Both the position numbers and the translations under genes were made by a program. This document shows, one piece after another, positions 30,176 through 36,689 of a stretch of 64,000 nt of DNA. Under the pieces are notes generated by a model. That model searched no databases, was not told the DNA's origin, and saw nothing but the letters and a program-made list of their open reading frames with translations. Every line of letters starts with the position of its first letter. Within the stretch, counting starts at the first letter, position 1. The stretch comes from Escherichia phage AV117. The stretch lies in the sequence record OR352947.1. One strand, 5' to 3'.

Positions 30176-30724
30176 TTAACGAGCCCATTTGATAATTTCT
30201 GTAATCAAATTATTACGTTCGCTTGCATTAAATCCTATAACTTTGTTAGCACCATCATGATTAAGTAATTGATACGTTTGGATTTTGTTATGAATTGCAA
30301 ACTCTTCAAAATATGAAATGACTGTATTAAAACCGAATGAAGACAAAGTAATAAGGTCGTCTTCAAAACTTTCAGTCATTTCGTTACGTGTTAAAATAAT
30401 TGTGAACACATCATGGTTTTGGCAAAGACGAACATAATCCTGTTCATAAACGTCAAGAACCGAGTCCACATCTTGTCGAATACGTCCATAAACCCAGTTA
30501 CTAATATATCCACGGTCTAACAGATAAATCTTAGTAGGGTCTAAATAATTCAACATCGTTTCGAAACAGCCAACTTCATTTCGAGACTTAACATCGAAAC
30601 GTCCATCAACTGTTCGTTTAGGGAAATCAATCTTTACATATCTTTCACTAATTTCCATTATGTCATTAATGAAAGTTGTTTTACCAGCATTATCCGGGCC
30701 ATCTACTAAAATAATTTTAGCCAT
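30176..30724 (-). CDS. thymidylate-kinase-like P-loop nucleotide kinase
   Basis: 182 aa; P-loop ILVDGPDNAGKTT (compare Tmk GxEGxGKTT) and LLDRGY (Tmk DRY-like motif). Confidence 0.55.
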   Translation of the reverse strand: MAKIILVDGPDNAGKTTFINDIMEISERYVKIDFPKRTVDGRFDVKSRNEVGCFETMLNYLDPTKIYLLDRGYISNWVYGRIRQDVDSVLDVYEQDYVRLCQNHDVFTIILTRNEMTESFEDDLITLSSFGFNTVISYFEEFAIHNKIQTYQLLNHDGANKVIGFNASERNNLITEIIKWAR

Positions 30725-30725
30725 T

Positions 30726-31625
30726 TTATTCCTCGATTACGACATCTTCATATTTAGGTATATTATACGGCGAAGAAATTAAAGCATTAAAGTAGATGAA
30801 CTCGCCAAGACCTGGATGGAATACTTCTTCAGGATTTTCGAAGTATTGAATCTTCGGACGTCCTTTAAGAATTTGATAGTACTCAGTTTTAGTTGGTTTA
30901 AAAATTCGAATCAGCGCTTCTTCAGGATACTTATTTCTGTCGAAGCTATTATTTGGATCGGTTATATAAAGCGGTTGACCTAATTGAATTGCACATTCAA
31001 CCACTTGTTCAAAACGATAGCACGGGTCACTAATTCGAAATGGATGAAAAATACCATCTAGATGAATAGGAGCCAAATCACCTACAAGACGCTGCATGAT
31101 GGAAGGACGTATAACTTTCTGCGTTACGATAATCTTATTACCATCTGCACCTGCGTTAACCAGCACTTCTTTTTGACGTTCATTCAACACAGTAGTTTGA
31201 AGTGAACGATTAACAGACAACATGTCGGTTTTTAAGAATTCGTCAATATAAAAACGTGGTTTATTAGGGTCTGCAGTGATATTGAAATTGAATTCTACGT
31301 CAAAAGTGCCGTCATATCCAGTGATATCTGTGATTAGAAAATCACAATCATAATAATCAATTAATGAATCAACCACAAATTCATTTTCAGACCAGAAATA
31401 TTTACGAGTGTTATATGCGTTATCTTTATACCATAATGGAACAAACTTAAATTCTGGGAAAAGTCGTTCACATTCTTTAATATCAGATGCATTACGTGGA
31501 TATGTAATCACATCACCCGGATTAGCACGGTGCAAATGAAGTTGGAAGTTGCCATCCTTAAGGATAGCATACTGTCCAGTTTCATAAGACCGCATACTCA
31601 AGATAGGTACGCGGAAAATAGCCAT
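30726..31625 (-). CDS. hypothetical enzyme (299 aa) in the T4 beta-gt map position
   Basis: no recognisable motif; 1-nt gap to downstream kinase and shared stop/start with the hydroxymethylase. Confidence 0.5.
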   Translation of the reverse strand: MAIFRVPILSMRSYETGQYAILKDGNFQLHLHRANPGDVITYPRNASDIKECERLFPEFKFVPLWYKDNAYNTRKYFWSENEFVVDSLIDYYDCDFLITDITGYDGTFDVEFNFNITADPNKPRFYIDEFLKTDMLSVNRSLQTTVLNERQKEVLVNAGADGNKIIVTQKVIRPSIMQRLVGDLAPIHLDGIFHPFRISDPCYRFEQVVECAIQLGQPLYITDPNNSFDRNKYPEEALIRIFKPTKTEYYQILKGRPKIQYFENPEEVFHPGLGEFIYFNALISSPYNIPKYEDVVIEE

Positions 31626-32341
31626 TAGTCAAGGAATCCTTTAACATAATCAAAATCACGTTCAAACACATGGGCACTTACCATGGTATGAGTATAATCA
31701 CCAACTTCTACACCACATTCTTTAGCGATATAATGAAGTAATTTTCCTTGGAGATAAAAATCCAACTGCATAACAACAGCACAGTTCTGAGAACGCATAT
31801 GGCAGTGGGTATAAAGCTTACCATCACGAATATAATAAGTCACTGAGTCAGTACATGGATATTCAAGTGTTTCGTCCGAATCAAGCAAAGCCTGATCTGA
31901 ACTTTCAAGAATTTGAAACACAACTCTTCGAGAGTTAGGTTTTTCTTTAAGTTCTTTTAGAAGAGTTGGTAACTGGGCCGCAATGCGAGGACCGTAGAAA
32001 GTGTTGAAGTTTGCAGGCAAAGCATCTGATTTCGGTTTAGAAATAAATTTAGCGACGTTAGGATATGCCTTAAATGCTTCTTCTGCATCAGTACCACCAG
32101 AAATCATAAATTTCCAGAAATCTTCAGCATATTCATAAGAGATGCGATTAATACGTGGGTCGGTCATTTTGAATGATGAAGGGGTATCAACAACTACTGT
32201 CATAGACCCAATTTCATTACAACGTCCAATACGAGAATCAGTAACGAACTGTGGATTTTCTAAAATTTCACGATTGACAGCTTTAAATGCGGATTGAAAA
32301 TCTTCGGCTTTAATATATTTCATTGTGTTATGTTTTCCCAT
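31625..32341 (-). CDS. 42: deoxycytidylate 5-hydroxymethyltransferase (gp42-type, thymidylate-synthase fold)
   Basis: 238 aa; PNSRRVVFQIL, YPCTDSVTYYIRDGKL (catalytic Cys), MRSQNCAVVMQLDF align by eye with the T4 gp42 blocks I recall; an Asp appears at the base-specificity position. Confidence 0.78.
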   Translation of the reverse strand: MGKHNTMKYIKAEDFQSAFKAVNREILENPQFVTDSRIGRCNEIGSMTVVVDTPSSFKMTDPRINRISYEYAEDFWKFMISGGTDAEEAFKAYPNVAKFISKPKSDALPANFNTFYGPRIAAQLPTLLKELKEKPNSRRVVFQILESSDQALLDSDETLEYPCTDSVTYYIRDGKLYTHCHMRSQNCAVVMQLDFYLQGKLLHYIAKECGVEVGDYTHTMVSAHVFERDFDYVKGFLD

Positions 32342-32390: not shown

Positions 32391-32478
32391 ATTTCTTAGC
32401 GATGTTGATATAACGTAGAGCTTCGGCTTAGTATTCCAATTGAACAGGTCCTTTAATCACTTTAGCCGCTTTAGTTTC

Positions 32479-32502
32479 AAAAAGGCCCTTATGGGCCTTT
32501 TT
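32479..32502 (-). terminator. strong symmetric hairpin terminator after the 386-aa gene
   Basis: aaaaaggccc-ttat-gggccttttt: 10-bp stem flanked by A5/T5, could terminate in either direction. Confidence 0.55.
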
Positions 32503-32579
32503 AAGAATTTGTTCGTTGCTGTTAATTTTAATAGTCAAAATCTCTTCGTTAAGTTGGTGGTTAAAAGTTTTTCTAGAAA

Positions 32580-33740
32580 TCATTCTGGGTACCTCAAAGC
32601 GTCATCAGAGTTAGTTATATCAATAATAGATATAGAGTTTTCTGATAACCCATTTTTAGATAACTGACGTTTATAATATCTTTCACAATATGTACACGTC
32701 GTCCCACAGATTTCATTAGCACAATCGAAATCTGGATGTTTGAACCACCTTTTTTCTAAAAAGCCGTCTAACAAAGAGGTTTCAATATTTACCGTATGTG
32801 AAAACTCAGTCTCATTTTCAAGAGTGAAAATGGTCTCTAAAGGCTTCCACAATTCCAACAAATTACCTTCAAATTTTTCAGAAGCATAAGCTTCAAGAAC
32901 TTTCAAAATGTAGTCTGTGCTACCTGTACGTCCTGAAACTTTGAATTGAGTGATACCAATATCATTATAAAGTTTCAAATCTTGAGGACGAACAAAACGA
33001 GTTCTCAACCAGTTAAATGGGTCTGTATCACGAGCTTTAATACAGTGTTGCATTGGATATCCATTTAAGGATTTGGCATCATCTACTGTAACGTCAGTGC
33101 TATGGAAAATATAGCAAGAGTCACGATAGCTACAATGTGTTGTATACCCTTTACCAGCATTAGAACAGAACTCATTTACAAGAACTTCAAATATTATATT
33201 GTTCTTATTACAAAACTCTGCTGCACGTTTCAGGAAAGAAACTGAACGGTTCTTATGAATTCCACAGCAGACCTTTTTGATATTATATTGGTCATGCAAG
33301 TATTTGATTTGAGTTACAGCATCGACATGTAGAATTGTTGAAACTTCAATCTCAATGTCTTTATTGACTTCACGAACAATTTCCATAACAACAGGGTTAG
33401 CGATAGTAATACGCCATACGCCTATTGACCAAAGATACTGAACATAATCCTGAATAGCTTTCTTCTTCCACTCAACTAGTTCTCTTTTTGAACCAGGATT
33501 TATCGTGTTGAGTGTATAGTTAAAGCAAATACCTAATTCGTTACAACGTTTAACGTAATCTTCTAACATCTTTTTGTCAACGTCAGGAAGCCTAAAATCA
33601 GGTCTGGCTGCTACAAAAGCCATTTCTCTTGTAGAGCCGTATACTTCGTTTATCAAGCTATTAGGATAAGTTTTATTGAGCTCTACGATTTTATCAAGAA
33701 GAGCTAAATCAAAATTCGTTCCGATTTTAAAAGTATTCAT
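32580..33740 (-). CDS. hypothetical Cys-rich enzyme (386 aa)
   Basis: C-terminal cluster CANEICGTTCTYCERYY (contains C-x3-C-x2-C) plus internal VCCG and CS..AGKGYTTHCSYRDSC; possible metal/Fe-S site; function unknown. Confidence 0.5.
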   Translation of the reverse strand: MNTFKIGTNFDLALLDKIVELNKTYPNSLINEVYGSTREMAFVAARPDFRLPDVDKKMLEDYVKRCNELGICFNYTLNTINPGSKRELVEWKKKAIQDYVQYLWSIGVWRITIANPVVMEIVREVNKDIEIEVSTILHVDAVTQIKYLHDQYNIKKVCCGIHKNRSVSFLKRAAEFCNKNNIIFEVLVNEFCSNAGKGYTTHCSYRDSCYIFHSTDVTVDDAKSLNGYPMQHCIKARDTDPFNWLRTRFVRPQDLKLYNDIGITQFKVSGRTGSTDYILKVLEAYASEKFEGNLLELWKPLETIFTLENETEFSHTVNIETSLLDGFLEKRWFKHPDFDCANEICGTTCTYCERYYKRQLSKNGLSENSISIIDITNSDDALRYPE

Positions 33741-33800: not shown

Positions 33801-34202
33801 TTATAGATTCGGTTTATATGATTTAAATGTTTCGAATTCGCCTTTATTCATAAGAGCTTTGAATTCGTCAGGACGCATAGCTTTGTCGTCGATAATCCAA
33901 TCATATACTGGTTTATGTGTTAGCAAATTATGGTACTTCAATCCAATGTTTGCCAAGTTCTGAATCAGACTTGGGAGAATGTCAATTGCTATACGACCAG
34001 GACCGACTGACTTCATACCGCGAGCAGTGTAAAGCGTTATGGTATGCCCTGCATCATACAGGGCATTAATGGCAGACACCATTTCGACGTCTGGTTTGAA
34101 GTTCACGTAATCACGATTGTTATTCCACTCTGTTATACAATCATCGACATCAAAACAAAGATTAAGCATGTTTTCTACACGGTGCATTAGATTCGTTCCC
34201 AT
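33801..34202 (-). CDS. HAD-superfamily phosphatase, small cap-less (KdsC/GmhB-like) form
   Basis: 133 aa; motif I FDVDDCIT (DxDx[TV]), LYTAR, K, DWIIDD; overlaps the upstream gene by 16 nt. Confidence 0.6.
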   Translation of the reverse strand: MGTNLMHRVENMLNLCFDVDDCITEWNNNRDYVNFKPDVEMVSAINALYDAGHTITLYTARGMKSVGPGRIAIDILPSLIQNLANIGLKYHNLLTHKPVYDWIIDDKAMRPDEFKALMNKGEFETFKSYKPNL

Positions 34203-35872
34203 TGATGAGTGATATCGCCACCGATTGGACGATAAGAAACACCGGTTTCTTTATCAGTTAGTACCCATTTACCAGGATTTTTTGTAATCAGAGTAGCCGT
34301 TACAGGTTCTGCTACGTCATAACTAATAGAGCCGTCCTGAAGTACACGGCCCATGTTACGTAATTGCTTAGTCAGAAGTTCCATACCTTTATAATATGCG
34401 GCTACCGCTTTAAGTGGATTATTCTTGAAATAACCACCTAATGCAATCCAGATAATTGCCGCTGCCAAATGATGATACTCGTTAAACGAACTCATCTTTC
34501 CATATTTGTAAACTAATGGATTGATGTTAATAGACACATTACAAGTTGTTTCATCGATAGTAAACTGTCCCCAGGTCGGATTAGCATTGAATTCATCATA
34601 ACCTGAAACAGCGTAAAGCACTTTAGCTTCATCATACAATTTTGGGCCGTAAATCTTGGTTTCGCCAAAATATCCACGAGGGTCGATAAACTTGACTTCG
34701 CCGTTATCAGTAATCATAGTATTACTGAAGTTCGGGTCACCATGAATAACAGAGTACTGTCCCTGAGAACGGTTATGATAACGAATAAGGTGTTCTAAAG
34801 CTTGTTTCAGCATTGGTTTCAGACGCCCAATCTTAGTGTAGTTCACATGTGTGATTTTACCAAATGAATCAATCAATGGTTGAATACTTTCACAACGATC
34901 AATGACTTTAGTATAGAATTCTTTAGTGAAATCACGACGAACAGTTTCAGGACTTACAAAATAAGTGTCTGTGCTGAATTTCAGTGCGTCTAAAATTGCA
35001 TCAACAATTTGTGGACGAGCAAGACTCGATTTGGATTTAATATATTCAAATGCTGGCTTACCTTTAATGCGTTCCATTTCAAAGTTATTTTCATTAACAG
35101 AAACTAACTGAGGAACTGAATCTGATTTCACTTTAAGATACCATGAAATCTCATCTTTCTGAAGAGCTCGACCCTGTTCGGTTAATGCGAATTTAGTTAC
35201 AGTTTCTTCACCAATTTCAACTGCATTAAAACTACGATTAAGTTCACGAACTTCATGAGCTTTTTCAAGTTTAGGCATATCACCTAAATCAATTAGATTC
35301 ATAAGCTCTGATTTATTGAATGCGCTGCCGTAAAGGAATTCTACGAAATCGCGTCCTTTGCAGTATTCATGAATTTCCTCATCAGTAGAACCCATATAGA
35401 ATTCCCAGTCTTTGAACTGATAAATTCCTACAACATTACCACCTGTTGAACCTACGTTAGTGATATTTTCACCGTCGAAATTATATCGACATTCGTCACC
35501 CTTAACATAGATTGCGTTAACATTCCAAGACCATGAACCAAAATCAGGAATAATATCACACCAGTTAACAATTACATTATGGCCGTCTAAATCTTTGTGC
35601 AATTTAGCAAGAGCATAAGCAGAACCATACGCTTCATCAACTGTACGAATAGTCACATTGAACCCTTCTTGCTCACAATAAGCTCGAACAGTTTCAGCAA
35701 ATTTTGAATGAACTACTACAATAATTTCATCTGCGCCAAGGTCAGAATAAATTGTATACAAATTGCTCAGAATAGTGTCTTGTTTATAATTAACAAGCAC
35801 CTTAGGAATATGATGCGTTATTGGATACAAACGAGTTGCCAGTCCAGCACCAAGAATAACAGCTTTTTTCAT
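34187..35872 (-). CDS. bifunctional sugar-1-phosphate nucleotidyltransferase (N-terminal) / APH-like anomeric sugar kinase (C-terminal)
   Basis: 561 aa; N-terminal AVILGAGLATRLYPIT..IPK (RmlA/GlmU-type GxGTRL motif); C-terminal VIHGDPNFSNTMI and FIDPRG (HxDxxxxN catalytic loop and IDxxG of aminoglycoside/choline-kinase fold). Confidence 0.7.
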   Translation of the reverse strand: MKKAVILGAGLATRLYPITHHIPKVLVNYKQDTILSNLYTIYSDLGADEIIVVVHSKFAETVRAYCEQEGFNVTIRTVDEAYGSAYALAKLHKDLDGHNVIVNWCDIIPDFGSWSWNVNAIYVKGDECRYNFDGENITNVGSTGGNVVGIYQFKDWEFYMGSTDEEIHEYCKGRDFVEFLYGSAFNKSELMNLIDLGDMPKLEKAHEVRELNRSFNAVEIGEETVTKFALTEQGRALQKDEISWYLKVKSDSVPQLVSVNENNFEMERIKGKPAFEYIKSKSSLARPQIVDAILDALKFSTDTYFVSPETVRRDFTKEFYTKVIDRCESIQPLIDSFGKITHVNYTKIGRLKPMLKQALEHLIRYHNRSQGQYSVIHGDPNFSNTMITDNGEVKFIDPRGYFGETKIYGPKLYDEAKVLYAVSGYDEFNANPTWGQFTIDETTCNVSININPLVYKYGKMSSFNEYHHLAAAIIWIALGGYFKNNPLKAVAAYYKGMELLTKQLRNMGRVLQDGSISYDVAEPVTATLITKNPGKWVLTDKETGVSYRPIGGDITHQWERI

Positions 35873-35913: not shown

Positions 35914-36057
35914 CTAGTTAAAGCATTCATACTTTGCTTGTAGTCCAATCATAATCCATCCGATTATAAGAGTCGGAACCATTACTGGAGCCGTTAAGCT
36001 CCAGTAGATAGTCATGACAAGCATCAATAGTAAAAGTCCTATTGTTATTGCTTTCAT
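35914..36057 (-). CDS. small membrane protein (about 47 aa), translationally coupled to the isomerase gene
   Basis: MKAITIGLLLLMLVMTIYWSL...; ATG overlaps the SIS gene stop (ATGA); GAGG RBS; approximate. Confidence 0.35.
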   Translation of the reverse strand: MKAITIGLLLLMLVMTIYWSLTAPVMVPTLIIGWIMIGLQAKYECFN

Positions 36058-36689
36058 TGTTCGCCTCGTAACATGGCACCTAGTGCACCGCCAGGGTGGA
36101 ACTTAAGGAAGTCATTAGAGGTAAATCCACGCTCAGACGAAAGGTTGATAGCAAACGTATCGATAAGCGCTAACAACAATGTAGTGGACATAGTCGGAGC
36201 CAGAGAATTCTCATCAACCTCTACTGCGATGCCTGTACAGAAAGAGTAATCAAAAAGGGCTTCATTTTCTTGTGGAATGTCTGGGTTACAATGCAACAGA
36301 ATCTGTTTGACGTTAGGACGAATCATTTTAAGATGCTTAGCCACGCCTATCATTTCTTCAGTTTTACCAGAACGACTAATATGAATCAACACATCATTAG
36401 GCGCAATGAATCCTGCATCACCGTGAGAATAATGCCCAGTGTTCAAGTACATACTCGGGATACCGAGTGAAGCAAATGTCTCAGAAGCTTTAGTTGCAAT
36501 ATTAGCATTCTTACCAACACCCGTAATAATTACTCGGCTTTCATAATTACTAAGTCCAGGGCGTCGAAGAGTTTCTAGAATAGCATTATAACGAGCAGGG
36601 TTTTGACTAATTACTTTGGCCATAGCGGCCAAAGAAGAAGCTTGTTTTATGATTGCGTCAATAGCGATAGTAATAGGAGTAGTTTTCAT
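36054..36689 (-). CDS. arabinose-5-phosphate isomerase-like SIS-domain protein (KpsF/GutQ-type, no CBS domains)
   Basis: 211 aa; FASLGIPSMYLNTGHYSHGDAGFI, ISRSGKTEEM, LAPTMSTTLLLALIDTFAI and RGFTSNDFLKFHPGGALG align block-for-block with the KpsF motifs I recall. Confidence 0.78.
   Translation of the reverse strand: MKTTPITIAIDAIIKQASSLAAMAKVISQNPARYNAILETLRRPGLSNYESRVIITGVGKNANIATKASETFASLGIPSMYLNTGHYSHGDAGFIAPNDVLIHISRSGKTEEMIGVAKHLKMIRPNVKQILLHCNPDIPQENEALFDYSFCTGIAVEVDENSLAPTMSTTLLLALIDTFAINLSSERGFTSNDFLKFHPGGALGAMLRGEQ

Follow-up and report, generated by a model that had tools for sequence, protein, structure and literature searches.

The minimal HAD gene behind afhE in an RB69-like coliphage very probably encodes AfhF, a phosphatase of the UDP-D-arabinofuranose route

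The DNA of phage RB69 carries mono- and di-arabinosylated 5-hydroxycytosine rather than hydroxymethylcytosine, and a thymidylate-synthase homologue makes 5hodCMP (Lee et al., NAR 2026, PMC13326640). The same paper summarises the work of He et al. (Nat Chem Biol 2026) on phage HY126. In that summary, AfhE phosphorylates Araf5P to Araf-1,5-P2, the Mg2+-dependent AfhF takes one phosphate from this bisphosphate to leave Araf-1-P, and the N-terminal domain of AfhE then forms UDP-Araf. RB69 gp51 is named by Lee et al. as the AfhF homologue. A structure of the HY126 enzyme was released on 2025-07-16 as PDB entry 9IQW, titled in the Foldseek library ‘phage HY126 encoded D-arabinose 1,5-diphosphate phosphatase AfhF’. 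The substrate, product and Mg2+ dependence used below are those of this literature, with the specificity resting on the secondary summary and the PDB title. AfhF is one of three enzymes supplying UDP-arabinofuranose for the arabinosyl-5-hydroxycytosine hypermodification, which guards the DNA of RB69-like phages against the nucleases of restriction and CRISPR systems. Its biochemistry and crystal structure are already known, so that finding AfhF at a further locus adds no new biology.

Small sugar-phosphate phosphatases with a comparable place in a pathway are found in bacteria. GmhB is a small capless HAD that takes the distal phosphate off a sugar 1,n-bisphosphate, itself the product of an anomeric kinase, before nucleotidylation. 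By analogy, AfhF would follow the logic of GmhB, its distal dephosphorylation falling between the anomeric kinase and the nucleotidyltransferase. KdsC is, like AfhF, a capless HAD, and removes a terminal phosphate that originates as the 5-phosphate of A5P.

The window, by which we mean the whole 64,000-nucleotide stretch of DNA analysed here, is a T4-type phage genome of the RB69-like Mosigvirus group. It is 98-98.6% identical to many Mosigvirus coliphages, 98.6% being the top identity in the phage collection that was compared (release of 31 August 2025). Every pathway gene was found in the window, in the order of RB69 genes 55 to 45 and on the minus strand, in surroundings that include DNA polymerase gp43, clamp-loader and clamp genes, UvsX and the gp41 helicase. 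The leading gene encodes a SIS-only D-arabinose-5-phosphate isomerase (36054..36689, RB69 gp55), which is assigned to the formation of A5P from ribulose 5-phosphate on the basis of Pfam SIS, PHROG 5670, NCBIfam KpsF/KdsD and PMC13326640. A hydrophobic ORF of 47 aa (35914..36057) separates it from afhE (34187..35872, RB69 gp52:53), whose 561-aa product joins an N-terminal sugar-1-phosphate nucleotidyltransferase to a C-terminal APH/choline-kinase-like anomeric kinase. Within AfhE, Pfam NTP_transferase covers residues 3-99 and weak kinase matches lie at 344-409; NCBIfam gives MurU/GlmU-type matches, and the kinase domain has the motif HGDPNFSN ... IDPRG. Next comes afhF (33801..34202 as the longest ORF, RB69 gp51), with a Peptidase-U32 homologue directly downstream (32580..33740, RB69 gp50; Pfam Peptidase_U32 and a weak UbiU match) and, beyond it, a small ORF that is the counterpart of RB69ORF049c (32428..32583). 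The thymidylate-synthase homologue (31625..32341, RB69 gp48) is, from Pfam Thymidylat_synt and the literature, the flavin/O2-dependent 5-hydroxy-dCMP synthase that makes the acceptor base. The last two genes encode a putative first DNA arabinosyltransferase of 299 aa, the user of UDP-Araf (30726..31625, RB69 gp46:47; PHROG 3891, synteny with RB69 and with phage contig L007, and Table 1 of PMC13326640), and a thymidylate-kinase-like nucleotide kinase (30176..30724, RB69 gp45; PHROG 761 and the same Table 1). Sequence searches of the PDB detected no solved structure for the AfhE and U32 proteins.

The same cluster order is seen in Serratia phages X20 and LC53, in Acinetobacter phage Berthold and in phage contig L007. 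In JS10 the afhE-afhF pair and the downstream genes are kept, and the isomerase is not among the annotated genes, hypothetical ORFs lying outside the comparison. The U32 gene that follows afhF in the window is missing from the Acinetobacter-phage and Dhakavirus clusters, as seen in Berthold and JS10. The 47-aa ORF is conserved, other Mosigvirus records and those of Serratia phages having a 144-nt ORF annotated in this position; the LC53 record notes ‘transmembrane segment(s)’ for its counterpart. Compared with the HY126 structures of 5hodCMP synthase (9IQC/9IR2), the window homologue differs at only 4 of 238 residues, which makes the window a close sister of HY126 and not HY126 itself.

The longest ATG-initiated ORF in the window listing at this position, 33801..34202 on the minus strand, encodes 133 aa and its translation reads MGTNLMHRVENMLNLCFDVDDCITEW...LYTARGMK...THKPVYDWIIDDKAM.... 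A preliminary description of the DNA had reported a 133-aa ORF with HAD motifs; the ORF and every motif quoted from it are present, and the strand, which was left unstated, is the minus strand. A PDB sequence search matched residues 5-133 to 9IQW_A (E=8e-88), with 100% identity over residues 6-133, and the gene context in HY126 is the same. The 133-aa protein is 99.2% identical to RB69ORF051c (RB69 gp51), the one substitution, R8H, lying in a variable N-terminal peptide, and 56-59% identical to homologues from Acinetobacter phages (cf. DLP3 gp81, PMC13326640). In RB69 and the Acinetobacter phages, as in the window, the AfhF homologue follows the AfhE homologue in the arabinosyl-5-hydroxycytosine cluster.

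A Pfam search with the 133-aa protein returned no match, so family placement comes from PHROGs, NCBIfam, the PDB and structure. The protein matches PHROG 1238 (E=5e-43), the family label of which, ‘phosphoheptose isomerase’, is misleading. The nearest NCBIfam model is TIGR01689, the EcbF/BcbF ‘capsule biosynthesis phosphatase’ (49.3 bits, E=4.3e-13); with 49 bits against a cut-off of 162, AfhF falls outside this subfamily and forms a sister group to it. An alignment of 23 sequences shows no variation at D18, D20, T59, K97, D105 and D106 (residues numbered as in the 133-aa ORF). On the minus strand, motif I with D18/D20 lies at 34143-34151, motif II with T59 at 34026-34028, motif III with K97 at 33912-33914 and motif IV with D105-D106 at 33885-33890. 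Motif I, D18-V-D20-D-C22, fits the DxDx(T/V) nucleophile/general-acid signature of the HAD superfamily, apart from position 22 (motif I +4), where most homologues have the canonical Thr and AfhF and its closest relatives have Cys. T59, K97, D105 and D106 align with the corresponding residues of 1XPJ. The core is a Rossmannoid alpha/beta fold, as expected of a HAD enzyme, and lacks a cap domain, as expected of the C0 class. A cap-less HAD had been proposed for this gene beforehand, and the length of 128-133 aa, the short inter-motif spacing (about 40 residues from motif I to II and about 38 from II to III) and the closest structures, the equally small HADs 1XPJ (Vibrio cholerae APC26283) and BT_0820 (PDB 2OBB), are all consistent with this.

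With the ORF, its motifs, its fold, its identity in sequence and structure to the solved enzyme 9IQW and its place directly downstream of afhE in an arabinosylation cluster all observed here, we are highly confident that the product of the gene is AfhF, a HAD phosphatase of minimal size that lacks a cap, depends on Mg2+ and serves the UDP-D-arabinofuranose route of an RB69-like phage. In the proposed pathway, the phage isomerase would convert host ribulose 5-phosphate to arabinose 5-phosphate, and the C-terminal kinase domain of AfhE would phosphorylate C1 to give arabinofuranose 1,5-bisphosphate. AfhF would then hydrolyse the 5-phosphate to leave arabinofuranose 1-phosphate, which the N-terminal domain of AfhE would uridylylate to UDP-Araf. 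According to the literature, AfhE both makes the substrate of AfhF and consumes its product. Phage glycosyltransferases would move arabinose from UDP-Araf onto 5-hydroxycytosine in the phage DNA, an arabinosylation that would protect this DNA from host nucleases. For the catalytic step we infer the standard HAD mechanism, in which Asp18 would be the nucleophile and Asp20 the general acid/base, Thr59 and Lys97 would bind the phosphate and Asp105/Asp106 would bind Mg2+. Removal of the non-anomeric phosphate had been suggested in the preliminary description with either A5P or Ara-1,5-P2 as the substrate; Ara-1,5-P2 is the published option, going by the title of 9IQW and the summary in PMC13326640.

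The alternative order of events would have AfhF turn arabinose 5-phosphate into free D-arabinose, on which the AfhE kinase would then act at C1 in a salvage-type route such as that of AmgK/MurU. In favour of this order, free sugars are the usual substrates of APH-like anomeric kinases. It is also the one given in Table 1 of PMC13326640, in which DLP3_081 and RB69p051 are listed as ‘dephosphorylates Araf5p to Ara’ and the kinase domain as ‘phosphorylates Ara to Araf1p’. The table conflicts, however, with the text of the same paper, where the account citing He et al. has AfhE making Araf-1,5-P2 and AfhF then making Araf-1-P, and the depositors of 9IQW chose the name arabinose 1,5-diphosphate phosphatase. 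We therefore regard a route through free arabinose as very unlikely.

Family comparisons bear on a further alternative and on the relation of AfhF to better known phosphatases. A reading of AfhF as a nucleotide phosphatase would liken it to 5'(3')-deoxyribonucleotidase or polynucleotide 3'-phosphatase and have it act on the nucleotide pool, for example in the removal of dCMP. We judge this role extremely improbable. The combination of an NT5C family-model match and specific fold similarity was not found for AfhF. GmhB is the best Foldseek match to AfhF among characterised enzymes (3l8h, E=4.6e-3). AfhF did not combine a match to the GmhB/HisB-N family models with specific structural similarity, and the same was true for the KdsC/YrbI family model and fold. 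GmhB and KdsC, previously offered as the equivalents of this protein, are functional analogues, and AfhF belongs to neither family.

A scan of one genome per species gave 29 loci with AfhF relatives, a pattern-biased sample in which L007 is the T4-like phage contig carrying the whole cluster. At eleven Chitinophagales/Sphingobacteriales loci, a 116-aa relative with 35-42% identity to AfhF is followed by a SIS-only arabinose-5-phosphate isomerase and then by KdsA, the third gene passing the NCBIfam equivalog cut-off for 3-deoxy-8-phosphooctulonate synthase with 371 bits against 242. The full HAD-SIS-KdsA operon is present at L010:5980-7704, L013-L017 and L019-L022, and the truncated L009 shows HAD-SIS only. 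Identities of the HAD to that of L010 range from 61% to 99% among these loci, indicating that several lineages are represented, and the arrangement occurs in at least six distinct Chitinophagales lineages. The HAD of these operons occupies the place expected for the Kdo-8-P phosphatase, KdsC, which may be a new observation. By their gene context, the bacterial relatives fit the earlier analogy to KdsC in an unexpected way.

Other relatives are fusion proteins in which the AfhF-like HAD is C-terminal to CTP_transf_3, a PseF/KdsB-like cytidylyltransferase domain (L008:3543-4568, L011:5068-6321, L018:5302-6345, L023:265-1386, L028:5194-6312, L029:5302-6336 and L032:5260-6294). The hosts of these fusions, which may likewise be a new observation, are Methylococcales, Pirellulaceae, Bacteroidota, Planctomycetota and Peregrinibacteria. 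A Dehalococcoidia locus has the cytidylyltransferase and the HAD as adjacent separate genes, and in L012 the fusion partner of the HAD is instead an NAD-dependent epimerase/dehydratase. A tblastn search at 1e-4 found no AfhE homologue beside the bacterial HADs outside L007, so that the afhE-afhF pairing appears to be phage-specific in this sample.

These contexts raise the tentative possibility that AfhF is one of a family of minimal bacterial HADs not recognised so far, which act as phosphatases just before nucleotidylation in ulosonic-acid pathways and from which phages took and retuned one member. That the wider family would act just before the nucleotidylation of A5P-derived or ulosonic sugars is suggested by gene context in the pattern-biased sample. 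If this were true, the HAD would have been acquired from such an operon, perhaps together with the adjacent SIS-only isomerase, and retuned in the phage from Kdo-8-P to Araf-1,5-P2, two substrates whose phosphorylated ends both derive from A5P. Confirmation of the bacterial relatives in the KdsC position could open small new questions. That AfhF itself keeps an ancestral ulosonic-acid-phosphate activity of the Kdo-8-P type and modifies host envelope sugars rather than DNA, as the name ‘capsule biosynthesis protein’ in many databases, the distant kinship to TIGR01689 EcbF/BcbF and the Chitinophagales relatives in their HAD-KdsD-KdsA operon might suggest, has next to no probability, given that neither KdsA nor KdsB was found in the phage cluster (window ORFs, Pfam), that identity to those bacterial proteins is 30-42% and that the identical HY126 enzyme has an assigned role in DNA modification. 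Among phages, AfhF relatives with 30-38% identity also occur in cyanophages of Synechococcus and Prochlorococcus (S-SSM7, P-SSM2, P-TIM68, S-CBWM1 and others), where the neighbouring genes bear nucleotidyltransferase or carbohydrate kinase annotations, a hint that these phages have a related module for sugar activation.

The start of AfhF was considered at the junction with afhE (34187..35872), which lies upstream and shares 16 nt with the longest afhF ORF. The minus-strand sequence of the junction is ...CAT CAA TGG GAA CGA ATC TAA in the afhE frame and ATG GGA ACG AAT CTA ATG CAC ... in the afhF frame. The first ATG (Met1) sits inside the Gln-Trp codons of AfhE (CAATGG) and is a by-product of them; it is missing in Serratia phage X20 (CAGTGG, with AGT as the in-frame codon), and the position is TTG in Acinetobacter phage Berthold. 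The ATG of Met6 overlaps the afhE stop codon by a single base, and RB69, JS10 and Berthold all keep this TAATG. The gene annotated in RB69 and other records is 387 nt long and starts at Met6, and gene models of homologues begin at the equivalents of Met6 or Met12. In the 9IQW construct the native sequence begins at Met6, and the AF2 model leaves residues 1-7 disordered (pLDDT below 50). From the junction comparison, the annotated starts, the 9IQW construct and the disordered N-terminus, translation probably starts at Met6, at 34187, to give a product of 128 aa and a stop/start overlap of 1 nt with afhE. The CDS of this D-arabinofuranose 1,5-bisphosphate 5-phosphatase would then be 33801..34187 (minus strand, 128 aa plus stop). 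The five codons of the optional 5' extension MGTNL (34188..34202, minus strand) fall within the last afhE codons and are probably not translated as part of AfhF. The 16-nt overlap in the preliminary description is correct for the longest ORF, of which this extension is the source, and probably reduces to 1 nt for the gene as translated. Anti-Shine-Dalgarno pairing was -5.1 kcal/mol for Met1 at a spacing of about 14 nt, -4.2 kcal/mol for Met6 at normal spacing and +0.2 kcal/mol for Met12; this scoring ruled out Met12 as the start and did not separate Met1 from Met6.

Direct placement of afhF 3' of afhE, with an overlap of 1-17 nt, is found in five lineages, which makes translational coupling plausible, and we infer that translation from Met6 in the TAATG overlap may couple synthesis of AfhF to that of AfhE. 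Gene pairs in the cluster commonly abut or overlap by 1-4 nt. The arabinosyltransferase and thymidylate-synthase homologue genes share base 31625, and 4-nt overlaps with the small ORF that follows are found for the U32 gene and for the isomerase gene, the 47-aa ORF reaching into the isomerase stop. With such overlaps the rule in the cluster, the afhE/afhF arrangement is ordinary for a T4-like genome. That it is dispensable as well is shown by phage NRG-P0074, in which a homing endonuclease ORF has come between the two genes. The coupling is therefore not obligatory, and of the co-translation first claimed from the overlap what stands is that the arrangement suggests translational coupling.

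The insertion in Escherichia phage NRG-P0074 is a GIY-YIG endonuclease ORF exactly at the afhE/afhF junction (L003:1765-2526). This ORF begins MGTNL, at the same ATG as the 133-aa ORF, and AfhF of that phage has a new N-terminus, MKPLHLCVDVDD. Homing endonucleases have invaded the afhE-afhF cluster elsewhere as well, Serratia phages having a segB-like one that separates the U32 gene from afhF (L004:3363-4001 and L036:2852-3490).

The U32 gene downstream of afhF is not needed to explain AfhF. For the U32 homologue (RB69 gp50) no role was assigned in the open literature searched, and PMC13326640 lists the gene only as ‘sugar or heterocycle reductase’. The C-terminal end of the U32 protein has a CX4CX3CX2C motif (CANEICGTTCTYC). 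In Serratia phages X20 and LC53, U32 shares 4 nt with the ORF that follows, and this ORF contains a chorismate mutase domain (Pfam CM_2, 44.6 bits with a GA of 27), with the U32 and CM_2 pairs at L004:4003-5513 and L036:3492-5002, and Klebsiella phage KLB31 carries the same chorismate mutase annotation. RlhA and TrhP belong to the U32 family, and their route is O2-independent. Both are prephenate-dependent hydroxylases, responsible for ho5C2501 in 23S rRNA and ho5U34 in tRNA, respectively, so that the U32/chorismate-mutase pair could be an anaerobic route to 5-hydroxycytosine beside the flavin/O2-dependent thymidylate-synthase homologue. The pairing may be new and, if confirmed, could likewise open small new questions. 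The small ORF downstream of U32 in the window (32428-32583) has a 39-nt deletion relative to RB69ORF049c (79 aa; L002:4115-4354) that leaves 51 aa. Neither it nor the RB69 counterpart has a Pfam match, CM_2 included, and chorismate mutase could thus not be demonstrated in Mosigvirus; the window ORF may represent the chorismate mutase of the Serratia phages in a state of decay.

The practical value of the AfhF assignment lies in annotation, as database labels could be corrected. Errors are widespread, most database records naming AfhF ‘phosphoheptose isomerase’, ‘capsule biosynthesis protein’, ‘polynucleotide kinase’ or ‘hypothetical’, with ‘haloacid dehydrogenase’ as a further label, and the first of these appears in many records because PHROG 1238 bears that name. 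AfhE is similarly mislabelled ‘dCMP deaminase’ or ‘GlmU’, and the arabinosyltransferase ‘RNA polymerase binding protein’.
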